Assembly: GCA_965208725.1 (NCBI GenBank)
Contig: CBDBPI010000002.1
Location: 1,706,878-1,770,877, forward strand
DNA: 64,000 nucleotides
Direction of reading: 5' to 3'
From: Dehalococcoidia bacterium
GTDB taxonomy: Bacteria > Chloroflexota > Dehalococcoidia > Lucifugimonadales > GCA-2712585
Positions 1,791 to 63,568 of the stretch are shown piece after piece. How positions within the stretch are numbered: the stretch's first letter is position 1; every line of letters starts with the position of its first letter. The position numbers and the translations under genes are program-made. The notes beneath the pieces are model-generated. The model worked only from the letters and a program-made list of their open reading frames with translations. It was not told where the DNA came from and ran no database searches.

Positions 1791-1906
1791 TCACCCACAT
1801 GTCATTCTGAGCGAAGCGGAGCGGAGTCGAACAATCTCGTTGCACTGTCACCAGACCTCTCCACGTTGTAGCCCCTATTTTCGTATGCTATGCTAACTTC
1901 AGCGCC

Positions 1907-3088
1907 ATGAGCGACCTCAAGTACTGGATTGCTTTTAATAAGGTGCGCCAGTTGGGCACCGTGCGATTTCGCCTGCTTGAAGGCTTTTTCGGTTCTCTGG
2001 AGGACGCCTGGTTCGCTCCCACCCGACATCTCCGTACCGCCGGCCTGGACCGGCGCGCCGTCAGGTTCGTTGAAGAAGGCCGCAGAACCATAGACCCCGA
2101 CCACGAGCTCGAACGACTCGAAAAGGCCGGCGTATCCGCCTTCAACTGGAACCACGACGGCTACCCCGACCTGCTCAAGCAGATTCCCGACCCGCCCCCC
2201 GTGCTCTACGTCAAGGGCAAAATCGAACCCGAAGATAAGCGCTCCATCGCCATGGTCGGCACCCGCAGGGCCACCCCCTACGGACGCGAAGCCGCCCAGG
2301 CCCTCTCCGCAGACCTGGCCCGCACCGGTATTACCGTCGTCAGCGGCCTCGCCCGCGGCATCGACACCGTCGCCCACAGGGCCGCCCTCAACGCCAACGG
2401 CCGCACCCTGGCCGTCCTGGCCAGCGGCGTTGACTACATCTACCCCAGGGAAAACAAGCATCTCTCGCAGGAAATCGTCGAAACCGGCGGTGCCCTCATC
2501 AGCGAACACCCCCTCGGAGTTCGCCCCGACCCACGGCAGTTTCCCCGTCGCAACCGGCTCATGAGCGGTATGACCCTCGGCACCCTCGTCATCGAGGCCG
2601 GCAAGGGCAGCGGCGCCATCTGGACTGTCCGACACGCCCTTGAGCAGGATAGAGACGTCTTCTGCATTCCGGGCAGCATCTTCTCCCCCGTCAGCTACGG
2701 CCCAAACCAGCTGATCCAGGAAGGGGCCAAGCTGGTCATGGACTTTCAGGACATCCTCCGGGAAATGAACCTGAACACCATCTACAATCTCCCCATTCAA
2801 GCCAGACCCGCTCCGGCAAGAAGGGAGCCGCCGGCCGCCCCAGTCACCGTCCCCGCCGAGCAGATGACGCTGAAACCCGCCAATCCGAAGCTCGAAGGGA
2901 ACGAAAAAACCCTCCTCGACCAGATATCCTATGAGCCAATCCACATCGATCAGATCTGCAGAGGCGCCGGCCTGCCCGCCCACGTGGTCAGCAGCACCCT
3001 TACCATCATGGAAATCAACGGCCTCATCAAGCAGGTCCCCGGTATGCAGTACGTCCTCACCAGAGAGGCCACGAGCATCTATGGCTAA
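1907..3088 (+). CDS. dprA: DNA processing protein DprA (Smf)
   Basis: 393-aa ORF with the DprA Rossmann core 'VVSGLARGIDTVAHRAAL...GRTLAVLASGVD' and a C-terminal winged-helix-like tail. Sits in the conserved dprA-topA neighbourhood. Confidence 0.9.
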   Translation: MSDLKYWIAFNKVRQLGTVRFRLLEGFFGSLEDAWFAPTRHLRTAGLDRRAVRFVEEGRRTIDPDHELERLEKAGVSAFNWNHDGYPDLLKQIPDPPPVLYVKGKIEPEDKRSIAMVGTRRATPYGREAAQALSADLARTGITVVSGLARGIDTVAHRAALNANGRTLAVLASGVDYIYPRENKHLSQEIVETGGALISEHPLGVRPDPRQFPRRNRLMSGMTLGTLVIEAGKGSGAIWTVRHALEQDRDVFCIPGSIFSPVSYGPNQLIQEGAKLVMDFQDILREMNLNTIYNLPIQARPAPARREPPAAPVTVPAEQMTLKPANPKLEGNEKTLLDQISYEPIHIDQICRGAGLPAHVVSSTLTIMEINGLIKQVPGMQYVLTREATSIYG

Positions 3089-3150
3089 CGATTCGGACCC
3101 TACCCACCTACAACCAAACAACTTGAAAATTCAGGAGGCTCAAGCCGTTT

Positions 3151-10696: not shown

Positions 10697-11323
10697 ATGT
10701 CGGCCCTACTCAACCTCGGCATCCTCGCGTCTCACACCGGCACCACTCTCCAGGCCATCATCGACGCCTGCGAACAGGGCGACCTCAACGCCCGCTGCTG
10801 TGTGGTCATCAGCAACAACTCTAAGTCGGTAGCCCTCCAACGGGCTCGCAATCACCACATCCCCGCCCTCCACCTGAGCAGCCGCACCCACCCCGAATCC
10901 CAACCCCTCGACACCGCCATCGCCGACGCCCTCTCCCGCCACGACGTCGACCTTGTCGTTTTGGCCGGCTACATGAAACTCCTCGGCCCAATCACCCTGC
11001 AGCGTTTCCGTAACCGCATCGTCAACACCCACCCCGCCCTGCTCCCTGATTTCGGCGGACGAGGCATGTACGGCGACAACGTCCACCAAGCCGTCCTCGA
11101 CGCCCGACGCGAGGCCACAGGCGTCACCGTCCACCTCGTCGACGAAATCTACGACCACGGTCCAATCCTCGCCCAGACCGAAGTCCCCATCCACCCCAAC
11201 GACACCCTCGCTTCCCTACGAGACCGCGTCCAGACCGTCGAACGCCGCTTCTACGTCGACACCCTCCAGAAAATCGCCACCAACCAAATCCCCCTCCCTC
11301 CTTCTCCCCTCCGCTCATCCTGA
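10697..11323 (+). CDS. purN: Phosphoribosylglycinamide formyltransferase
   Basis: 208 aa. 'LGILASHTGTTLQAIIDA', 'LVVLAGYMKLL' and 'IVNTHPALLPDFGG' (the N-H-D formyltransferase triad region). The last ~10 codons and the stop codon lie inside a repeat module (CGCTCATCCTGA at 11312). Confidence 0.9.
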   Translation: MSALLNLGILASHTGTTLQAIIDACEQGDLNARCCVVISNNSKSVALQRARNHHIPALHLSSRTHPESQPLDTAIADALSRHDVDLVVLAGYMKLLGPITLQRFRNRIVNTHPALLPDFGGRGMYGDNVHQAVLDARREATGVTVHLVDEIYDHGPILAQTEVPIHPNDTLASLRDRVQTVERRFYVDTLQKIATNQIPLPPSPLRSS

Positions 11324-11747
11324 GCCTGTCGAAGGATCGAGCGTCCCTCTTCCATTAAACCTGTAGGGGCGGTTCGCGAACCGCCCTTCTTCTTCCCCCT
11401 CTCCCATCTTGCTAGAGGGCTGGGGTGAGGGCACTCCCTCTCTCCTCTTAAGCCTTCCCCCTTGACGGGGGAAGGCTTGGATGGGGGTGACTCCCCCGTT
11501 TGCCCTACCCCTGCTACCCAAATGACCTTCGTAGTGAGCGGCTCGCGAGCCGCCCGCCCTCGTCAACTGCGCCCAACCCCAAACGTGTCAAACCAGCCCC
11601 ATCTCTACACCAAACCCCTCAACCCACCACCAACTCTGCAACTTACCGCAACGCAGTTGCCTTGCCGTCATGCAATGACCCCCCCAAACCAAAAGACCCG
11701 CTCTTTCAAGCAGGTCTCTTGCAGACTCCTGGTATGTCGAAGGAACG
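11324..11747. repeat. Intergenic mosaic of short hairpin repeat modules
   Basis: Modules seen elsewhere in the window: CGCTCATCCTGAGCCTGTCGAAGGA (11312), GTAGGGGCGGTTCGCGAACCGCCC (~11363), CCCTCTCCCATCTTGCTAGAGGGCTGGGGTGAGGG (~11396), CTTCCCCCTTGACGGGGGAAG+GGATGGGGGTGA (~11455), GAGCGGCTCGCGAGCCGCCC (~11537), GCAACGCAGTTGC and GTCATGCAATGAC (~11650-11680). Confidence 0.8.
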
Positions 11748-15610: not shown

Positions 15611-16390
15611 TCCTGAAATCGTCTCTGCAACACAAACGCCCCCATCGGGCGCAACTATCTATTCTAGACTACCCCGTCACCCCCATCAACGAAAGCAGAC
15701 CCACCGCCCACCCAATTCCCCTCCCACCCGCTCATCCTGAGCCTGTCGAAGGACGAAGGGACGAGCCTCCTTTCCCATTAACCCGTAGGGGCGACCGGCT
15801 GGTCGCCCTTCCCCCGCCGCCGGTCCCCTCTTCACCCTCTCTCATCCTGGAGACCTTTGAACAACCGTCATTCCGGCGAAAGCCGGAATCCAGAAATGCG
15901 CGATTTAGCTATAACTAGGGCAGGACAACTCCACAATCTGAACCTGTTTCGGCAGTTACGCAAAGCTCTCCGTCCTGGGAGAAGGTTGGGCTGAGGGTCG
16001 CCTCATGCCTCTTCCCCCTTGACGGCGGAAGATTGAGATGGGGGTGATTCCCTCACCAAACATCAATCCCCTGTAGGGAAGAGGGCGGGTTTGAAACCCG
16101 CCCTCTTCCCCCTCCACCCACACCGTACCCGTAGGGTCGGCTCGTCAATCCCCCACCCCCGCGAAAGCGGGGCCCACTCGTCACCAACCACCAAACCCCT
16201 CTCTCCACACCCAACCCCAAATTTGCCGCAACGCAGTTGCCGCCACCCTCGCGAAGGCGGGGGCCTACTCTCCACCGGCCACCAAACCCCCCAACCCACA
16301 CCCAACACTGCAGACTTAGCCGCAACGCAGTGACCCCTCTATCCCCATCCGCCGCCTTGGTGATAAACTGATGCACAAATCATCCCTAAG
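15611..16390. repeat. Intergenic mosaic of hairpin repeat modules, including the 119-bp element copy 2 (15854..15972)
   Basis: In order: CGCTCATCCTGAGCCTGTCGAAGGA (15729), GGGCGACCGGCTGGTCGCCC (15788), the 119-bp element (15854..15972), CTTCCCCCTTGACGGCGGAAGATTGAGATGGGGGTGA (~16012), GGGCGGGTTTGAAACCCGCCC (16083), CCCCCGCGAAAGCGGGGCCCACTC (~16155), GCAACGCAGTTGC (~16225), CGCGAAGGCGGGGGCCTACTC (~16250), GCAACGCAGTGACC (~16322). Confidence 0.85.
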
Positions 16391-16401
16391 GAGGCCCTCA
16401 C

Positions 16402-16848
16402 GTGCCCTTGGCCACAGGCGACAAAGCCCCCGATTTCACCCTCTCAGACACCGATGGACAGGACGTTTCTCTCAGCAGCTTCCAGGGAAAGCAGAAAGTC
16501 CTCCTCGTCTTCTATTGCCGCAACAACACCCCCGGTTGAAACCGCCAGCTCCAGGCCCTGCGGGACGACAGGGCCGAATTCGACGCAGCCAACGCGGCAA
16601 TCCTCGCCGTCAACCCCGCCTCCGTGAAGTCGCACCAGAACTACAAGGCAAAGTTCGACCTCCCCTTCCCCCTCCTGTCCGACGCCGACCGCGCCGTTTC
16701 CAACGCCTACGACGCCGTCAAGGCCAACGGCAAGAGCATCCAGCGCTCCGTCCTCATCATCGATACAGACGGCGTCATACGCTACCTGAAGCGCGGCATG
16801 CCCAAGGACGCCGAACTTCTCGAAGTCCTCAACGGCCTCGATTCCTAG
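16402..16848 (+). CDS. Bcp-type peroxiredoxin with an in-frame UGA (selenocysteine candidate) at the peroxidatic position
   Basis: GTG at 16402, 7 nt after TAAGGAGG. Translation: VPLATGDKAPDFTLSDTDGQDVSLSSFQGKQKVLLVFYCRNNTPG-TGA(16537..16539)-NRQLQALRDDRAEF...PFPLLSDADRAVSNAY. The same frame continues into track ORF 16624..16848. The TGA sits exactly where AhpC/TSA-Bcp proteins carry the T-P-G-C catalytic Cys. Confidence 0.75.
16554..16575 (+). promoter_or_regulatory. Candidate bacterial SECIS hairpin for the peroxiredoxin UGA
   Basis: GGCCCUG-CGGGACGA-CAGGGCC: 7-bp perfect stem with an 8-nt G-rich loop. It begins 17 nt after the U of the UGA at 16537. Confidence 0.45.
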
Positions 16849-26814: not shown

Positions 26815-26972
26815 CTACCTCCTACCTCGACTGTTGCTAATTCTAGTTTTCACCCTCAAGAAGTGTCAAGCTAATCCCGCCGACCCACAACGCTTGACCC
26901 GCCTTGTTGCACGTCATTCTGTAGAGGCGGGTTTGAAACCTGCCCTGTCTCCATCCGCCAGCCCGCTATCTC

Positions 26973-30841: not shown

Positions 30842-31135
30842 CCCCCTCCCCTATTCCCCCTCTCCCATCTTGGGAGAGGGTTGGGGTGAGGGTATTCCCA
30901 CTTCACCCACGCCCAACCCCAAACTTACCTCAACGCAGTTGCCCCACCCCCACGGATGCGGGGCCCACTCCCTCTCCCCCTCAACCCACACGTCAGATGT
31001 AGGGGCGGGTTTGAAACCCGCCCTTTCCCCACGCCCCGTAGCGCAGCAAAGAAGAATCTCGCGATCCACCCTCACATACAATATGGAACGATTCCACCAC
31101 AATCCGCATACTATCCAATAGAGGCATCAACAAAA

Positions 31136-35787: not shown

Positions 35788-36026
35788 CCCCTCTCTTCGT
35801 CATTCCTGCGAAAGCAGGAACCCACGGCGGAGTGGAGGCACTTCTTGGATTCGCCACCCCTGCGAAAGCAGGGGCCTATGGCGGGGTAGGGATGGGCCGG
35901 GTCCCTCTTCCCCCTCTCCCGTCCTGGGAGAGGGTTGGGGTGAGGGTGCCTACTTGCAACATGACATATCCGTAGGGGCGGGTTTCAAACCCGCCCTCCC
36001 TTAAACCCCACCATAAGGAGCCACCC

Positions 36027-37169
36027 GTGAAACTTACCCACGGCCTCATCAGCGCCGACGACCGCGTCCAGGAGACCCCCGAAACCTGGACCGCCTACAT
36101 CTCCGCCCAAAAGTGGGGCGACCGGATCCCCCACATCGAAGAGCGTGACGATGGCTCCCAGTTCTGGGTCGTCGCCGGCCAGCCCCTCGCCGACCGCCCC
36201 CTCGCCGACGCTGGCGCCCTCATGCCCGACCGTAACCAACTTCCCAAACGCTGGGAAGATGTGCCTGCCGCCGCCTATGACCCCGCCCTACGACTCCTCG
36301 CCATGGACGCCGACGGCGTCGACGCCCAGGCCCTCTACCCCAGCATGTCCGGCGGCTCCGGCGAAGTCCTCGGCGCAATCTCAGACCCCGAACTCCAGCT
36401 AGCGAGCGTCCAGGCCTACAACAACTGGCTCATCGACGCATGGGCAAAGCAAAGCCCCCGCTTCATCCCCCAGTGCCTCGTCCCCATCAACGACCCCAAC
36501 GCAGCAGCCACCGAAGCCGCCCGCGCCATCAACCTCGGACACCGCGGCGTCATCCTCCCCGGGACCCCTTGGGACCTCCAGAACGTTCCCCACATCAACG
36601 ACGACGCTTGGGATCCCCTCTGGAACGTCTGCCAGGACTGTGAAGTCCCCGTCTGCTTCAACTCCGGCGCAACCCAGAAGCTCCGACTCCAGGCCTGGGA
36701 CAACTTCTCCCCCGTCCTCACCGACGCCATCAACGCCATCACCGGCCCCGTCAGCAGCGTCCCCATCCTCGCCAACCTCCTCTTCTCCCGCATCCTCACC
36801 CGCTTCCCCACCCTCAAATTCGTCCTCTCCGACACCTCCCTCGCCTGGGGCGCCTACCTCGTCGAGACCGCCGACCACCAATTCGAACGACAGCGGCTCC
36901 ACCGCGAAGGCTACGCCCTCAAACCCTCCGAGCTCTTCCGACGCCAGTGCTACATGACCGGATGGTACGACCGCGCTGGACTCCAGGTCAGAAGTTACCT
37001 CGGCGTCGAAAACATCCTCTGGCAGACAAACTTCCCCCGCGCCACCTCCACCTGGCCCAACACCCGCCAATACATCCAACGCAGCTTCGCCGACATCCCC
37101 GACGCCGAACGCCAGCAGATCCTCACCACCAACCCCTCCACCCTCTACCACCTCTTAGAGGATGTCTAA
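36027..37169 (+). CDS. Amidohydrolase-2 family metal-dependent hydrolase (3' end remodelled by IS insertion)
   Basis: 380 aa with a GTG start. '[19 protein letters not shown]', '[11 protein letters not shown]' and '[13 protein letters not shown]'. The last three codons and the stop (E-D-V-*) are supplied by the IS left end, which begins at 37158. Confidence 0.75.
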
Positions 37170-38028
37170 AAAGCATTGGAGTTAGCCAATCGTCGTAGCA
37201 TCAAACCAGTCATAGCGGCGTAGACCCATGCTTCTGTGGTCTGGGGCAACTCCTCATAGTCCTTGCTCAGGCGACGATATCGGCCCAACCAGGCAAAGGT
37301 ACGCTCCACAACCCAACGGCGTGGAAGCACCTCGAAGGTGTGTTGACCGGATGGACGCCGCACTAGTTCCAAGTTCCATCCACATATCTTTCGCGTCCAC
37401 TCCACCAGTTTGCCTGCGTAAGCCCCATCAGCCCAGATTCGCTTCAACCGAGGAAACCGGCCTACCAAACCCATCAGCGCCCACCTGGCTCCGTCTCTAT
37501 CCTGGATGTTGGCCGGATGTACCACCACTGTCAACAACAATCCTGTAGTGTCTACTACGATGTGTCGCTTTCTTCCACAGACCTTCTTACCAGCGTCATA
37601 GCCACGAGGCCCCCTTTTTCCGTGGTCTTCACCGTTTGGCTGTCTATGATGGCCCCGCTCGGACTGGCAGACCGTCCCTCATCCAGCCGTAAACGTTCCC
37701 GTAGCGCTTCATGTATCCGCTCCAGGGTCCCATCTCTTCGCCATGTGCGAAAATAGTGGAACGTGATGCGCCACGGGGGCAGGTCGTGAGGGAGCATCCG
37801 CCATGCGCATCCGGTGCGCAACACATAACGAATTCCGTTCATTACCTCCCTGCGCGGGTAATTGATTGGGCGGCCCGTTGATTTCGGGGGAGGCAACAAC
37901 GGTTCCAGCATTTGCCATTCTTTGTCACTCAGGTCGCTTGGATATCTCTCTCTGCTCATGGAACACTACTTTAGGTGCTCCCTTATCTACTATCCTACGA
38001 CTTCCAATGACAGTTTTTAGACACTTTC
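37158..38028 (-). mobile_element. IS5-family (IS427-group-like) insertion sequence, 871 bp, apparently intact
   Basis: Imperfect terminal inverted repeats GAGGATGTCTAAAAA (37158..37172) and GAAAGTGTCTAAAAA (revcomp of 38014..38028). Flanked by a TA/TA direct repeat (37156-57 and 38029-30). Carries two overlapping transposase ORFs. Confidence 0.85.
37166..37959 (-). CDS. IS5-family DDE transposase, orfA (37555..37959) plus orfB (37166..~37625) joined by a -1 frameshift
   Basis: orfA reads '...[14 protein letters not shown]' and then runs out of frame. The -1 frame continues '[42 protein letters not shown]...ADGAYAG...[20 protein letters not shown]'. The shift site is the A5G run GAAAAAGGGGG (about 37613-37623 on the minus strand). 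Confidence 0.85.
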
Positions 38029-43116: not shown

Positions 43117-43854
43117 CTACGTAGGGAACATGTCGTACAGCATTGGGAACGTGCGCCTAAAGTAGGCGTTCACAAAGCTGGAGAATGGCCTATCCGGTGA
43201 AATAAATTCGAGGGCTACACCAATCATTTCACTGTCGGCTCGATTCTTAAGTCTATTCTTCAGCATGGCCAGATGCCTAAGCCGACGATTGCGAACGTTT
43301 CGTGGATCATTCTCACCAAAATAACTGTCGTTCAGGTCTAGATCTCTAATCATTCTGAACGATGTTGACCACTCTTCACTATTAACCCGCCTTGCAGGTT
43401 GAATTTCACCCGTATCCACATCGAAGTCAAAATAATCATGAGCTGAACGTTGCCCCTGCTGAAAATTTGGATCCACGTATCGATCTACCGGAATATACCG
43501 AGCATATCCCACGTTTAACACCTGATTAACTTGATCAGCAGATTCAGGCCACTGGCCACCCTTTGCATCGTTGCATTGTTTGCAGCAGTAGACTAAGTTT
43601 TGCCAGTCGAAAGAGAGTGCAGGGAATTTCCTGCGAGGCCGAAAGTGATCGATCGTCTCTTCATCGCGAGAGTTTCCACTTCTTGTAGGAGGCTCGCACG
43701 ATTTTTCGCAATACCCACAAATCCCCTTGAAGTCATCAGAGAGTCCGCGGCGCATGCGGGCACGGTCGCGGAAGTCCAAGTCACTCCACTCTTTTCCATC
43801 ACGTCGCAGTTGGGCCAAGTGCATTGGCTCATTCGAGCGTTGTACCGAATGCAA
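43117..43854 (-). CDS. ptuB: HNH endonuclease, Septu PtuB-like
   Basis: 245 aa. 'CGYCEKSC...ETIDHFRPRRKFP...NLVYCCKQCNDAKG' is the HNH core. It begins 2 nt after the stop of the ATPase gene (TTG at 43854; an alternative ATG lies at 43824). Low GC. Confidence 0.65.
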   Translation of the reverse strand: MHSVQRSNEPMHLAQLRRDGKEWSDLDFRDRARMRRGLSDDFKGICGYCEKSCEPPTRSGNSRDEETIDHFRPRRKFPALSFDWQNLVYCCKQCNDAKGGQWPESADQVNQVLNVGYARYIPVDRYVDPNFQQGQRSAHDYFDFDVDTGEIQPARRVNSEEWSTSFRMIRDLDLNDSYFGENDPRNVRNRRLRHLAMLKNRLKNRADSEMIGVALEFISPDRPFSSFVNAYFRRTFPMLYDMFPT

Positions 43855-43856
43855 AC

Positions 43857-45169
43857 CTAGCCGCTATCCTGGTCGAGGCTCTGTCTTTCCTGGTACCTCT
43901 GCAAGGCTTCAGCAAACTGATGCTCGAACTCCTCTTGCTGTGCCTCCTCCGGTCCACCCGCAAGCAACTCCCGATTCACTCGTTGCCGAAGTCCCTGCAT
44001 CCGCCGTTGACGCTTCTCCTCCTCACGCCCATCGTCCAGCGGCTCCTGGTCACGTAGTCGTCGCAACTCCTTAGCCGCCTTTGCAGTCTCATTATCCGTG
44101 GGGTCTGTAACTCCCATCATCGTCCTCAGAATCTCATCCATTGTCCACCCAACAATATCCTCACTACTGGTTGTGGCCGTAACTCTACCCTCGTCCCTAC
44201 TCATCAGATGCACCTGCCCAGCCCTAAGCCCGGCCACAACGAATGGCGAGTGGGTTGTCGCAAAAATCTGCAGGTTGGGAAAATACTCCGGCGCCTGGAG
44301 TGTCGATAAAACCCGCCGTTGCCACTTTGGATGAAGATGATTCTCTATCTCATCAATCAGCAATATCGCAGGTTTCTTTTCCCAACCCTCTTTCCAACCG
44401 TAATGATTAGCCATCTTTAACGCGAGCGCGTAAATCCATAGAAGCGTCCCCTGTGTTCCTGAACTTAGCGCACCCATATAGACGGACTCTCCACCCTCTT
44501 CGTCGCTGGTCTCAAAGCCCATGTTTGCATGTGGAATCCTGCCAGGCTCAAGATACGTATGCGGACCTACACCGAGAATGACCTCTGTACATATTCTCCT
44601 GACAACAGCATGTACTAAGGCCAAAACCCTATCGATCTCGAACTGCACAGATGGCCTTTCTGCCATCAATTTCCTGTATGCGTCAACGGCTACAACTACA
44701 TCTGTGCCATTGAATATCCCCGGATCGGTTTCGAAGATAAAGTCAAGTGGAAATTTCCTAGCCTCTATAGACCTCTTCCACAGTGGCATTGCAAGCCCAA
44801 TTTCAGGGTTAATCGGCAAGTTTATTCTGGTAGCAGGAATGCTGAGAATCGGAACCCTGCTCATAGTCGTCTCGCTGCAAGCTTTGTGGACGTCACCAAG
44901 CCCGATCTCGCAATTGGAGCAGTCATCGCTCAGAGTTATCAGACATTCCGGCTCCTTATCATCGCCAAAGTCCTCAAACTTCATCTCCTCTAGTATCGGA
45001 TGCAAAGGGTTTTTCTCATTCCGGGAATAGGCATATTCCATAGCTCTCAGGATCGTCTCTTCCCCGAAGCGTTAGGACCAATCAACAAGTTGACCCGCTT
45101 GTCGCAATCCAGAGAGATTTCTGTGGAAATTGGAGGAATGTCTCTAATCAGAATTTTCTCAATATACAT
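43857..45169 (-). pseudogene. ptuA: ABC/AAA_15-type ATPase, Septu PtuA-like, frameshifted immediately after the Walker A lysine
   Basis: The ATG at 45169 opens 'MYIEKILIRDIPPISTEISLDCDKRVNLLIGPNASGK-RRS*'. The 394-aa track ORF (43857..45041) continues in another frame as '(T)ILRAMEYAYSRNE...'. One nucleotide appears to be missing at about 45056-45057; the expected reading is GPNASGK-S-TILRAMEY. Downstream, 'ILLIDEIENHLHP' is the Walker B/D-loop and 'IFATTHSPFV' the H-loop. Confidence 0.65.
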
Positions 45170-57231: not shown

Positions 57232-57561
57232 CTGAGCCGAGGAATCTCCCCTCCACCTACACTCCGTAGGGGCGACCGGCCGGTCGCCCTTCCCCTCTTA
57301 TCCCTTCCACCTCAACGGGCAAAGAGCGAGGCGGGGATGATCGCTCCAAGGAGATGTAGGGGAGACCCTTCTGGTAGCCCGCTTCTTTCTCGTCCTCTAC
57401 GCTATGCAGGGGCGGGTTTGAAACCCGCCCTCCCCTCTCTTTTTCCTGCGAAGGCAGGAACCAATTCCCTACCCGCATCCAACTGTCCCCCACCACCCCT
57501 TGACTCTCCCCCAATTCCCCCTAAACTTCACATCATCTCCCCCCCAAAAGGAGCCTCCCCC

Positions 57562-57825
57562 ATGCCCGACCCCAACAAACACGCCATCGAAATCGAATAC
57601 TGCCACGACTGAGGCCACGCCCTCCGCGCCGCCTGGATGGCCGGCGACACCCTCAACCGCATCGGCGACCGCATCTCCTCCTTCACCCTCATCCCCGGCG
57701 GCCACGGCAAGTTCGACGTCCGCATTGACGGCCAGCTCGTCGCCGAGCATCGACACGAACCCAACGCCCACATCTTCCCCGACCTCCAGGACCTCCTCAA
57801 AGCCTTCGACCAACGCGCCAACTGA
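57562..57825 (+). CDS. SelW/Rdx-family redox protein with a C-x-x-U motif (selenocysteine candidate)
   Basis: ATG at 57562, after AAAGGAG. Translation: MPDPNKHAIEIEYCHD-TGA(57610..57612)-GHALRAAWMAGDTLNRIGDRISSFTLIPGGHGKFDVRIDGQLV... The same frame runs into track ORF 57637..57825. 'IEYCxxC/U...RAAWMA' is the Rdx-family signature. Confidence 0.75.
57627..57646 (+). promoter_or_regulatory. Candidate bacterial SECIS hairpin for the SelW-like UGA
   Basis: CGCCG-CC-UGGAU-GG-(C)-CGGCG: a 7-bp stem with a one-nt bulge and a G-containing 5-nt loop. It begins 17 nt after the U of the UGA at 57610, the same spacing as in the peroxiredoxin gene. Confidence 0.4.
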
Positions 57826-57849: not shown

Positions 57850-59103
57850 ATGACCACCAACGACAACGTACAATCCCCCGTCGCCGTCCGCCCCCAAGAC
57901 TACCCCCGAGGCCAAATCCTCGCCTCCTCCGCCGACGAAGCCCGCAAGTCCACCCAGGGCCGACGCCTAGTCCGTGAGCGCGTCCTCTCCCTCGGCAAGG
58001 ACGCCATCTACAACATGACCGGCCTCGTCCGCGCCTTCCCCCTCGACCCCGAAGACCTCCCCACCCTCGAGAACCAGTTCACCTACTACACCCACTTCCT
58101 TGGTCGTGCCGAGGCCATGGCCGTCGAATTCGTCGGCGCCAACCCCCGCGACCACCAGGCCGTCATGTGCAACCGCGTCACCTCCGCCATGCTCGCCATC
58201 ATGCTCGGAACCCTCAATCGCGGCGACGCAATCATCTCCCTCGTCGGCAAAGGACGCTCCCACCCCTCCGTCCAGCAGGCCGTCGAGCTCGTCGGCGCCG
58301 ACTTCATCGAAGTCGAATCCATCGAAGCCCTCGAAGATGCACTCCCCCTCCGACCCTGGAAGATGCTCGTCGTCACCCCCCTGACTCCCTCCAAGCACCA
58401 CGTCCCCGCCGACCAGGTCGCCCACGCCATACGGCTGGCCAAGGAGCGCGACATGCTCGTGTTCCTCGACGACGCCCACATGATGTCCCGCACCATCTTC
58501 TTCGACGAACCCCCCACCTTCCAACTTGGCGACGTCGACCTCTCCGTCTGGTCCCTCGACAAGCACGTCCCCGGCCCCCGAGGCGCCGCCATCGTCGGAC
58601 GCAACGACCTCATGGAGCAGGTCTCTGCCCAGGCCTTCCAGTTCGGCCTCGAAGCCCAGTCCGGCCACTACGTCGCAATGGTCCGCGGCATGGAAGCCTT
58701 CGATCCCGAGCCCGTCAAGCGCGCCTCCGCCCTCGCCCGCACCCTCCACAAAAAATTCCAGGCCCGCTTCGGCCCCACCGTCTACCAGGCCGGCCCCGGC
58801 GTCGCCCTCACCGCCGAAGACTTCACCGAAGTGGTCTTCAATCACGCCGGGACCCGCGAAACAACCCTCGCCCCCTCCGAAGTCTCCGTCACCGCCAGTT
58901 TCCTCCTCCTCAAGAACTACGGCGTCATCACCATCCCCATCACCGGCTACCCCGGCGCTGCCCCCACCTTCCGACTTATGATGCACCCCGACGGCGAACG
59001 ATTCGGCGTCGACCCCCTCGTCCACGCCGTCCAGGACACCATCGAACGAACCGCCACCCTCCTCCAAAACCCCAACGCCGTCCGCACCCTCCTCCTCGGC
59101 TAA
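57850..59103 (+). CDS. PLP-dependent fold-type-I enzyme, SelA-like family
   Basis: 417 aa. 'VWSLDKHVPGPRGAAIVG' parallels the SelA 'SGDKLLGGPQAGIIVG' PLP-lysine segment, and 'LVFLDDAH' parallels the upstream Asp region. It lacks the SelA N-terminal tRNA-binding domain, so it is not called selA. Confidence 0.5.
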   Translation: MTTNDNVQSPVAVRPQDYPRGQILASSADEARKSTQGRRLVRERVLSLGKDAIYNMTGLVRAFPLDPEDLPTLENQFTYYTHFLGRAEAMAVEFVGANPRDHQAVMCNRVTSAMLAIMLGTLNRGDAIISLVGKGRSHPSVQQAVELVGADFIEVESIEALEDALPLRPWKMLVVTPLTPSKHHVPADQVAHAIRLAKERDMLVFLDDAHMMSRTIFFDEPPTFQLGDVDLSVWSLDKHVPGPRGAAIVGRNDLMEQVSAQAFQFGLEAQSGHYVAMVRGMEAFDPEPVKRASALARTLHKKFQARFGPTVYQAGPGVALTAEDFTEVVFNHAGTRETTLAPSEVSVTASFLLLKNYGVITIPITGYPGAAPTFRLMMHPDGERFGVDPLVHAVQDTIERTATLLQNPNAVRTLLLG

Positions 59104-59800
59104 CCCCCTTACTAACCGCTCATCCTGAGCCTGTCGAAGGACAAGGGCTAGCGGTTGGTTCGTGTTTCGTCTCCCCCGCGAAAGCAGGACCCCATGGCTG
59201 GGCTGTGAAATAGATTTCGTCATTCCTGCGAAAGCAGGAACCCACGGCGGGGTGGTGGACGGGTGGTCCCTTCCCCTCTTAGCCCTTCCCCCTTGACGGG
59301 GGAAGGTTCGGATGGGGGTGATTTCCTCGCTCGCCCTCCGCTCATCCGTAGAGGCGGGTTTGAAACCCGCCCTCTTCATACCTCAACCCACACCTGACTC
59401 GTAGGGGCGGCTCGCGAGCCGCCCGCCCCACACACGATGCGCTCATCCTGAGCCTGTCGAAGGACGAGCGCCCCCTAATTCGTTATTCCTGCGAAAGCAG
59501 GAACCTACGGCAATGCGGTTGCTGGGCGGTCCTCTCTCCCTCTTATTCCTTCTCCCGTCCTGGGAGAAGGTTAGGGTGAGGATATCCCACCCTCCCCTCT
59601 TAATCCCCACCCCCGCGAACGCGGGGGCCCACTCTCTACCCACACTCAACCTGTAAGGGCGACGGCCGGTCGCCCTCCTTTCCTGTAGAGGGACCCCAAC
59701 ACCCTCACCCCTCCTCCCCTTCCCTCTCCTTCGTGCATGTATAATTCCCATCAGTGCCCTCCCGCGTTGCGACAAATCGCGATGGCCCAAAGGGAAAGAA
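59104..59800. repeat. Densest mosaic of hairpin repeat modules (at least 11 modules from 8 families in ~600 bp)
   Basis: In order: CGCTCATCCTGAGCCTGTCGAAGGA (59117); CCCCCGCGAAAGCAGGACCCC (~59172); GTCATTCCTGCGAAAGCAGGAACCCACGGCGG (59216); CTTCCCCCTTGACGGGGGAAGGTTCGGATGGGGGTGA (~59286); CGCTCATCC+GTAGAGGCGGGTTTGAAACCCGCCC (~59339); GTAGGGGCGGCTCGCGAGCCGCCC (~59401); CGCTCATCCTGAGCCTGTCGAAGGA (59440); TTCCTGCGAAAGCAGGAACC (~59486); CTCCCGTCCTGGGAGAAGGTTAGGGTGAGG (~59557); CCCCCGCGAACGCGGGGGCCCACTC (~59610); GTAAGGGCGACGGCCGGTCGCCC (~59653). Confidence 0.85.
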
Positions 59801-61503: not shown

Positions 61504-61892
61504 ACCCTAAGCTCTCACTCCTCCGTAGGGGCGGCTCGCGAGCCGCCGACTCCTAACCAGCCATCAATCCTCTCCCCCACGCCCAACCCCAAACTTTCCG
61601 CAACGAAGTTGCCCGTCACGCAGTGACCCCACCCCCGCGAACGCGGGGCCCAACTCTCTATCCACACCCAATCCCCCAACTTGCCGTCATGCAATGACCC
61701 CCCTCTCCTGTCCTGGGAGAGGGTTGGGGTGAGGGTTATTCCCCGCCCCCTAACCCGCTCACCCTGAGCCTGTCGAAAGACGAAGGGTCAAGCGCCCCAA
61801 CCTATCCAGGTAGGGGCGGGTTTCAAACCCGCCCTCTTCCAACTCCAATTCCCCACCCCCGCGAAAGCGGGGGCCCACTCGCAACCCGAAAC
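61504..61892. repeat. Intergenic mosaic of hairpin repeat modules
   Basis: GTAGGGGCGGCTCGCGAGCCGCC (~61525), GCAACGAAGTTGCCCGTCACGCAGTGACC (~61598), CCCCCGCGAACGCGGGGCCCAACTC (~61635), GTCATGCAATGAC (~61687), CCTCTCCTGTCCTGGGAGAGGGTTGGGGTGAGGGT (~61705), CGCTCACCCTGAGCCTGTCGAAAGA (61756), GTAGGGGCGGGTTTCAAACCCGCCC (~61810), CCCCCGCGAAAGCGGGGGCCCACTC (~61857). Confidence 0.8.
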
Positions 61893-63162: not shown

Positions 63163-63568
63163 TGCACCACCTCCTTAGTAGACGTTATAGACGCCAACCG
63201 CCCACACTATATCACACACCCTAAAACCCCCTCCCGCTTAACCTCTTCCCCCTTGACGGGGGAAGATTGAGATGGGGGTGACTCCTCCATCACCAAACCG
63301 CTCATCCTGAGCCTGTCGAAGGATCGAGCGTCCCCCTACATCAACCCGTAGGGGCGGCTCGCGAGCCGCCCGCCCGCTATACCCACGAATTTGCCCAACC
63401 GAAGCGCCTTCCCCTCCCTCCACAACCGACACCTCACCCCAAATTTGCCGCAACGCAGTTGCCCCCACCCCCGCGAAAGCGGGGGCCTACTCTCTCGCAG
63501 CCATCAAACCCCACAACCCACGCCCAACTCTGCGAAACTTGCCGCAACGCAGTTGCCCAAACTTGCCG
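63163..63568. repeat. Intergenic mosaic of hairpin repeat modules
   Basis: CTTCCCCCTTGACGGGGGAAGATTGAGATGGGGGTGA (~63243), CGCTCATCCTGAGCCTGTCGAAGGA (63298), GTAGGGGCGGCTCGCGAGCCGCCC (~63348), GCAACGCAGTTGC (~63447), CCCCCGCGAAAGCGGGGGCCTACTC (~63468), GCAACGCAGTTGC (~63545), GTCACGCAGTGAC (~63569). Confidence 0.8.

Follow-up and report, generated by a model that had tools for sequence, protein, structure and literature searches.

Peroxiredoxins that carry selenocysteine (Sec) in a TxxU motif (Prx, PF00578) are an experimentally verified family of prokaryotic selenoproteins (PMC13188914), and PrxU of Eubacterium acidaminophilum is given as their founding member (Sohling et al. 2001, as entered under ref. 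83 of PMC13188914). Sec-containing peroxiredoxins (Sec-Prx) are among the most abundant selenoprotein families of marine metagenomes, with 253 genes in GOS (PMC2398784), and metagenome-assembled genomes of Dehalococcoidia, with 46-49 selenoprotein genes, rank with the richest of all bacteria in this respect (PMC13326102). In bacteria the Sec insertion sequence (SECIS) is modeled as a hairpin with an apical loop of 3-9 nt that has a G in its first two positions, a stem of 4-16 bp, a distance of 16-37 nt between the UGA and the loop, and a minimum free energy of at most -7.5 kcal/mol (PMC13188914). Here we describe a gene located at positions 16402-16848 (+ strand) of a 64-kb stretch of DNA from a Dehalococcoidia bacterium, the whole of which (positions 1-64000) is called the window in what follows. 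An earlier note on this DNA had proposed that the gene is a probable selenoprotein, and from its conservation among relatives we read it, with a probability of about 0.9, as a UGA-recoded Sec peroxiredoxin, that is, one peroxidase of 148 residues with a thioredoxin fold and of the BCP/PrxQ type. This reading is supported by a conserved UGA/Cys column, by the selection acting on both sides of the UGA, by the fit of a downstream hairpin to the bacterial SECIS (bSECIS) model, and by a second UGA-containing gene in the same window.

Results

A peroxiredoxin reading frame interrupted by one UGA

Translation from the GTG at 16402 yields 45 sense codons, VPLATGDKAPDFTLSDTDGQDVSLSSFQGKQKVLLVFYCRNNTPG, ending in ...VFYCRNNTPG, which are followed by a TGA at 16537-16539 (+); after this codon the same frame continues through 102 further sense codons, NRQLQALRDDRAEF...LNGLDS, to a TAG at 16846-16848. 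The complete coding sequence of this BCP/PrxQ-type member of the AhpC/TSA family therefore has 148 codons including one in-frame UGA, the predicted Sec codon, which encodes residue 46 and corresponds in the homolog column to the peroxidatic Cys. A Shine-Dalgarno-like TAAGGAGG was read at 16387-16394 (+), 7 nt 5' of the GTG, exactly where the earlier note had placed it. The same note had described the frame from 16402 to 16848 as interrupted by a single TGA and missed by open reading frame (ORF) calling; the translation confirms the interrupted frame, and the mechanical ORF list has two separate pieces of the gene, 16402-16539 with 45 aa and 16624-16848 with 74 aa. In the orthologs described below the start codon is a GTG at the same place, with the exceptions of L114 and L123, in which it is ATG, and of L001, in which an upstream frameshift obscures the start.

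When U was read as C, the product matched the Pfam family AhpC-TSA (PF00578) with 126 bits (cut-off 26, E=1.1e-36), in an alignment that covers profile positions 2-123 of 124 and runs across the TGA. The nearest solved relatives are BCP/PrxQ peroxiredoxins, with 5ENU as the best one (E=6e-28), followed by 3DRN and Rv2238c. It had been claimed that the TGA falls on the catalytic-Cys codon of an AhpC/TSA-Bcp enzyme and, in addition to the Pfam match, this holds in the alignment with 72 homologs, in which T43-P-G-U46 stands over TPGC, in agreement with the T-x-x-C(U) motif expected at the start of helix 2. Thr43 (16528-16530, +) is the conserved active-site Thr of this TxxU motif in the homolog alignment. 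The conserved active-site Arg, Arg115 (16744-16746, +, within IQRSV), has the Arg of IERS in 5ENU as its counterpart; it corresponds to R112 of the homolog alignment and is invariant in alignment A2.

The codon usage of the region agrees with a coding function on both sides of the UGA. A log-odds coding score trained on the 45 confident genes of the window was 0.40 before the TGA and 0.61 after it, the mean of the confident + strand genes being 0.48. In a codon-usage scan for genes read through one TGA, the peroxiredoxin ranked by far first among 71 candidates in the window; no other TGA-interrupted candidate in the window came near its score, in a scan that was not exhaustive. As TGA terminates 8 of the 45 confident genes of the window, this codon is not globally reassigned.

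Conservation of the UGA and selection on both halves

We found 14 orthologous loci in Dehalococcoidia/Chloroflexota (L001-L011, L114, L122, and L123), which together with the window make 15 clade sequences. In a scan with a single genome for each GTDB species, eight Dehalococcoidia genomes were found to encode a protein 86-94% identical to that of the window, the next relatives being at most 52% identical, and look-ups of database fragments added loci L001-L003, L114, L122, and L123. The peroxidatic codon is TGA in all 14 orthologous loci as well as in the window, within the clade motif VFYC(R/K)(N/D)(N/D)T(P/A/S)G-TGA-(N/T)RQL, and it is TGC or TGT in 72/72 of the more distant homologs (identity of 52% or less). 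Protein identity among the orthologs spans about 60-94%, none of the 14 has an additional stop, and 13 of them have an unbroken frame before and after the UGA; the other one, L001, is frameshifted upstream and comes from a contig of 2.93x coverage. Most orthologs share the gene order aspS / prx / rhomboid / rex / ATP synthase, L123 being in a different context. Finally, the ratio of nonsynonymous to synonymous substitutions (dN/dS, pooled pairwise) was 0.121 upstream of the UGA (codons 2-45) and 0.130 downstream of it (codons 47-148), so both halves are under equal and strong protein-level constraint in one frame.

These data bear on the possibility that the gene is a pseudogene, in which a TGC or TGT codon of a Cys-peroxiredoxin would have mutated to a TGA nonsense codon and the two ORFs would be decaying remnants. 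Gene callers do annotate two fragments in every relative, and L001 carries an extra frameshift, but on a contig of low coverage and as the only case. The same TGA is present in 14 independent genomes in spite of their divergence, the dN/dS on both sides (about 0.12) is that of a functional gene, and the start codon, the ribosome-binding site, and the synteny are conserved. The conserved TGA, the intact frames, and the equal dN/dS thus exclude a pseudogene or a sequencing error, and the decay of a Cys enzyme is effectively refuted. The earlier note had named beforehand a pattern of decay in place of a conserved UGA/Cys column as grounds for abandoning its proposal; the pattern that we found (TGA in 14/14, TGC or TGT in 72/72, dN/dS of 0.12/0.13) is clearly selenoprotein-like.

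Another alternative is that translation terminates at the UGA and that an internal start, such as the GTG at 16624, gives rise to a separate C-terminal polypeptide; the products would then be two peptides, or the C-terminal one only, with a role other than that of a peroxidase. An internal GTG ORF is indeed present, and databases list such fragments as proteins: in a search seeded with the ortholog P0015, 84/86 matches were C-terminal fragments of 50-97 aa, many of which begin at RDE/RDD just past the UGA. However, the start positions vary among the orthologs, as the lengths of these fragments indicate, and no ribosome-binding site is conserved at them. Moreover, the NRQLQALRDDRAEF... stretch between the UGA and the internal starts shows the highest conservation within the protein and lies in the same frame, and neither fragment would have the catalytic residue, which makes this alternative extremely unlikely. 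In three further families that we looked up (L114, L115-L117, and L118-L120), the upstream ORF ends in T-x-G-TGA in all cases. The wider set of fragments retrieved with P0015 is probably the TxxU Sec-Prx family, and because of both the fragments and the T-x-G-TGA upstream ORFs the window gene can be placed in a large and already recognised Sec-Prx assemblage.

A predicted SECIS hairpin downstream of the UGA

The earlier note had described a perfect 7-bp hairpin starting 17 nt after the UGA. Its sequence and its position are present in the window, as GGCCCUG/CGGGACGA/CAGGGCC at 16554-16575 with the first base 17 nt from the U of the UGA, but the outermost pair does not stand as a conserved element: G16554-C16575 forms in the window and is unpaired in 4/12 orthologs. 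On the basis of folding, of pairing across the 15 sequences, and of the fit to the bSECIS model, we therefore delimit the predicted bacterial SECIS hairpin at 16555-16574 (+). The conserved structure consists of a 6-bp core (16555-16560 with 16569-16574) and a 2-bp inner extension formed by the pairs C16561-G16567 and G16562-C16566, with an apical GGA at 16563-16565 and a bulged A16568; the loop is reduced to GGA when these inner pairs are formed, and is CGGGACGA otherwise. When folded in isolation, the 26 nt at 16552-16577 reached -15.5 kcal/mol (z=-3.9), and 0/200 shuffled sequences were equally stable; in a GC-rich context of 60 nt the z-score of the fold was not significant, so that only the local 26-nt hairpin stands out. 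We applied the bSECIS criteria of PMC13188914 by hand, and a loop of CGGGACGA or GGA, a stem of 6-8 bp, a UGA-to-loop spacing of 21-23 nt, and the energy of -15.5 kcal/mol lie within the limits of all four. A search of Rfam gave no family matching the peroxiredoxin hairpin.

The pairing is maintained throughout the clade. Over the 15 sequences, all cells of the 8-pair structure (120/120) are standard pairs. The loop-closing G-C pair is replaced by A-U in L002, L122, and L123, through two changes that are both synonymous at third codon positions (CTG to CTA and GAC to GAT), and there are two single, wobble-compatible changes, C-G to U-G in L004 and G-C to G-U in L114. All three stem substitutions thus keep the pairing, 0/500 shuffles matched the observed pairing or covariation score, and in controls in which the structure was slid along the alignment the pairing fell to 25-48%. 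Furthermore, synonymous divergence has its minimum over codons 46-58 (0.225, vs about 0.3-0.45). The predicted structure can be considered well supported by these comparisons taken together, covariation alone not being a proof of it.

A second UGA gene and the probable decoding of selenocysteine

A second gene with the same logic had been indicated in the earlier note at 57562-57825 (+), and the sequence there is as described. It is a SelW/SelT/SelH (Rdx)-like gene of 87 codons, as judged from NCBIfam and homologs, with YCHD-TGA in its N-terminal part, where CHD-UGA makes a CxxU motif with the UGA at 57610-57612; YCHD-TGA is kept in three orthologous loci (L111-L113). Its match to NCBIfam NF041051 has an E-value of 8.5e-10 and 38.7 bits (cut-off 88), and that to TIGR02174 reaches 32.6 bits, slightly below the cut-off of 34.2. 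All of its database homologs (91/91) are fragments of 56-74 aa that begin after the UGA; several of them are labelled as 'predicted Rdx family selenoprotein' (JGI), and one is from a SAR202 bacterium. The gene was not among the best 40 candidates listed in the codon-usage read-through scan. Its predicted SECIS hairpin, at 57628-57645 (+), has the apical loop UGGAU at 57634-57638, 21 nt past the UGA, and an energy of -12.1 kcal/mol; the ortholog L112 has an equivalent fold with the same loop at -10.9 kcal/mol. The UGA-to-loop spacing of 21 nt is common to this gene and to the peroxiredoxin, if the 8-nt loop of the latter is considered. Because two UGA codons fall on the redox-active Cys of unrelated families and are followed by NGG-loop hairpins at equal spacing, we infer that the source genome decodes Sec.

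The same observations are relevant to the idea that the UGA is recoded to another residue, such as Cys through a SECIS/SelB-like route or a suppressor tRNA, or Trp by near-cognate decoding, which would give a full-length protein that is not a selenoprotein. In fact, conservation and dN/dS prove read-through and not the identity of the inserted residue, and no Sec machinery was seen in the window. A homolog is even recorded with Trp at the Sec/Cys position (P0302, ...YPRNSTPG-W-NRQLAAL), presumably as an artefact of the translation table: the likeliest explanation of this Trp is a Sec-UGA that the pipeline of the depositor translated with a table in which UGA means Trp. However, a UGA placed exactly on the redox-active Cys in two unrelated families, as TxxU in one and CxxU in the other, is a signature of Sec, both genes have a SECIS-like hairpin at the same spacing, and the two families are established selenoprotein families. 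In addition, BSepDB, which is restricted to species with a Sec pathway, lists Dehalococcoidia species with many selenoproteins. Recoding to a residue other than Sec is accordingly quite unlikely, and Sec remains the residue that we assign to position 46.

Candidate components of the Sec pathway

ARAGORN reported a tRNA-SeC (anticodon UCA) at 59345-59433 (-), which we rejected as an artefact built from two intergenic palindromic repeats: its 'D arm' and its 'T arm' are copies of the palindromes GGGCGGCTCGCGAGCCGCCC (5 copies) and GGCGGGTTTSAAACCCGCC (7 copies), a G and not a U precedes the anticodon, and the acceptor stem is made mostly of wobble pairs or mismatches. Rfam detected neither a tRNA nor a tRNA-Sec at 59345-59433, even at E<=1, and 27 relatives of the neighboring gene have no tRNA at the corresponding place. 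Similarly, in L003 ARAGORN gave an implausible 93-nt 'tRNA-Gln' in the short intergenic stretch upstream of the prx ortholog. Any tRNA predicted in these genomes should be checked with a second method.

The gene at 57850-59103 (+), which begins 25 nt past the SelW-like gene, encodes a pyridoxal phosphate enzyme of 417 aa that is related to the archaeal SelA-like MJ0158 family (TIGR03576, Pfam UPF0425_C). Its TIGR03576 score is 197 bits, under the cut-off of 304. In the close orthologous contig L111 a gene occupies the same position, the contig ending inside it. We considered this enzyme as a Sec synthase and dropped it, as it matches no SelA model and TIGR03576 only below the cut-off; its 27 metagenomic relatives (58-72% identity) have neither a SelW neighbor nor a tRNA.

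In L115-L117, an 84-aa ORF at ~11176-11430 (-) shows a weak match to EF-Tu domain 2 and lies about 8 kb from a distant Sec-Prx (FYPGNDTPG-TGA). This ORF may represent part of a SelB-like gene.

Other features of the window

The two palindromes that compose the false tRNA are perfect, GC-rich, REP-like, and intergenic, and 0 copies of them would be expected by chance. GGCGGGTTTSAAACCCGCC is found at 16084-16102, 26926-26944, 31004-31022, 35977-35995, 57411-57429, 59353-59371, and 61815-61833, and GGGCGGCTCGCGAGCCGCCC at 11367-11386, 11536-11555, 59405-59424, 61529-61548, and 63352-63371. Spurious ORFs running over these repeats share peptides such as 'RQAQDER' and 'PLNRPAVGS'.

The composition of the window is extremely asymmetric between strands. 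The GC skew is -0.24 across positions 1-64000 and has the same sign in + and - strand genes; at third codon positions it is -0.60 in + genes and +0.35 (on the coding strand) in - genes. This asymmetry is far above the usual replication skew. Among relatives, the GC skew is -0.25 to -0.28 in the closest ones (L005, L006, L009, and L011) and weaker in more distant ones. How long antisense ORFs arise from such a skewed composition is illustrated at 1802-3121, where the longest ORF is on the - strand (439 aa) and has no family match, and codon usage places the real gene on the + strand, at ~1811-3088 (score 0.37), which by eye, from the sequence alone, looks DprA/Smf-like.

The 45 confident genes end in TGA (8), TAG (19), or TAA (18), so TGA is the rarest stop in spite of a G+C content of 60%. 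At 60% G+C, TGA is usually the dominant stop. This rarity might be linked to a heavy use of Sec or to the C-rich strand bias.

Two adjoining small ORFs at 37166-37540 and 37555-37959 (-) are transposase-like by eye, and 43117-45041 (-) encodes an HNH endonuclease paired with an AAA_21/AbiEii-type ATPase. Both sets were assigned to a region at 38-42 kb in which the GC content falls to 0.49-0.53, as might be expected of a mobile or defence islet.

Discussion

Several observations weigh against a Sec peroxiredoxin at 16402-16848 and have to be considered together. The canonical Pro of the PxxxTxxU motif is missing in the window protein, and the NCBIfam models for Sec peroxiredoxins score it far under their cut-offs: the PrxU equivalog NF040737 gives 48.6 bits (cut-off 270) and Prx-SUH NF045827 gives 21.1 bits (cut-off 298). 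Regarding the hairpin, the dip in synonymous divergence is modest and a second dip of similar depth exists; the covariation consists of one double substitution in three related sequences, probably a single event to judge from their relationship; and the stem overlaps the conserved codons A-L-R-D-D-R, so that the conservation of the hairpin is partly due to the protein. When 40 ORFs of the 64-kb window were scanned against Pfam and NCBIfam, none turned out to be selA, selB, or selD, and in this window the sole tRNA-Sec prediction is the artefact described above. On the other side stand the UGA/Cys column, the dN/dS values, the bSECIS fit, and the SelW-like gene, which led us to the assignment given at the beginning.

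According to established bacterial Sec decoding and peroxiredoxin chemistry, the protein could be made and act as follows. The hairpin at 16555-16574, whose apical loop lies 21-23 nt past the UGA, would be bound by SelB carrying Sec-tRNA(Sec), and Sec would be inserted at the UGA (16537-16539) as residue 46 instead of termination taking place. Thr43 and Arg115 would then activate the selenolate of Sec46, which would reduce hydroperoxides and itself become a selenenic acid; a thiol would resolve this acid, and a thioredoxin-type reductant would serve for the recycling. This resolving thiol may be external or, more speculatively, that of Cys39.

Cys39 (TGC codon at 16516-16518, +) is the sole Cys of the protein, and in the alignment it occupies the canonical Pro position of the PxxxTxxC motif. 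In solved peroxiredoxin structures the side chain of this Pro contacts the peroxidatic residue. The replacement is found in 15/15 clade members, as VFYC(R/K)..T..-TGA; among the motif-matched best representative Cys homologs, the same position is Pro in 135/141 and Cys in 0/141. P0007 is the only fetched Cys form that shares the Cys at the Pro position, and the more distant Sec forms L115 and L118 retain the Pro. In addition, the window protein has no resolving Cys at position +5 (U-N-R-Q-L-Q), where 101/141 of the motif-matched representative homologs have one (CxxxxC). Because Cys39 is present in the whole clade and in none of the 141 Cys homologs, and no Cys is at +5, the idea arises that Cys39 is the resolving residue, forming an intramolecular selenenylsulfide with Sec46 in the active-site pocket without local unfolding. 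Other 2-Cys peroxiredoxins need local unfolding for resolution. We consider this role of Cys39 possible but rather doubtful. If true, it would represent a new mechanistic subclass of peroxiredoxins, with a Cys at -7 that resolves Sec, going beyond a plain exchange of Sec for Cys. The change of Pro to Cys beside Sec is the only point of this locus that a specialist might pursue, as it could define a resolution of selenenic acid without the usual resolving Cys.

Regarding annotation, the window and the 11 relatives for which gene calls were seen show either two 'AhpC/TSA fragments' in place of one gene or a call of the C-terminal piece alone, so that metabolic reconstructions of SAR202-like Dehalococcoidia miss an antioxidant enzyme. 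The presence of two selenoprotein genes in 64 kb fits the reports of very large selenoproteomes in some Dehalococcoidia. Sec-peroxiredoxins and SECIS elements have long been known, and the finding is mainly an annotation correction, with nothing categorically new.

When compared to described systems, the predicted SECIS agrees with the bSECISearch consensus (Zhang and Gladyshev), with E. coli fdhF as its prototype, in being an in-ORF stem-loop right after the UGA, with a small apical loop opening with G-G, a spacing within 16-37 nt, and an energy of at most -7.5 kcal/mol; it differs from the fdhF SECIS in having no sequence similarity to it, and the binding of SelB is here a prediction. The SelW-like gene resembles the bacterial SelW-like (Rdx, CxxU) selenoproteins in its CxxU motif, in its length of about 87 aa, and in sharing its genome with a Sec-Prx. 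For marine metagenomes, adjacent selenoprotein genes of the Prx and SelW families have been reported (PMC2398784), whereas in the window the two genes stand 41 kb apart.

Among Cys-containing BCP/PrxQ proteins (PDB 5ENU, 3DRN, and 5IPH; E. coli Bcp, NF006960), the window protein shares the length, the domain, and the conserved Thr and Arg. The closest Cys forms (P0001, P0006, P0007, and P0010) are 40-54% identical to it and have in common the unusual signature NNTPG-C-NRQL. The window gene differs from the Cys proteins in the UGA that replaces the catalytic Cys, in the lack of the resolving Cys at +5, and in the Cys that replaces Pro at -7; its score against NF006960 is 88, under the cut-off of 140. 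With PrxU and the TxxU family it has in common the AhpC/TSA fold, a Sec predicted in place of the peroxidatic Cys in T-x-x-U, a predicted SECIS hairpin in the coding sequence just downstream, and Cys homologs that far outnumber the Sec forms. However, the window protein is neither the PrxU equivalog nor Prx-SUH by the scores given above; its place is in the short BCP/PrxQ branch, with 148 aa, and not in the AhpC/Prx1 type, and the Pro of the 'highly conserved PxxxTxxU' motif of the family is replaced by Cys in the Chloroflexota clade of the window.

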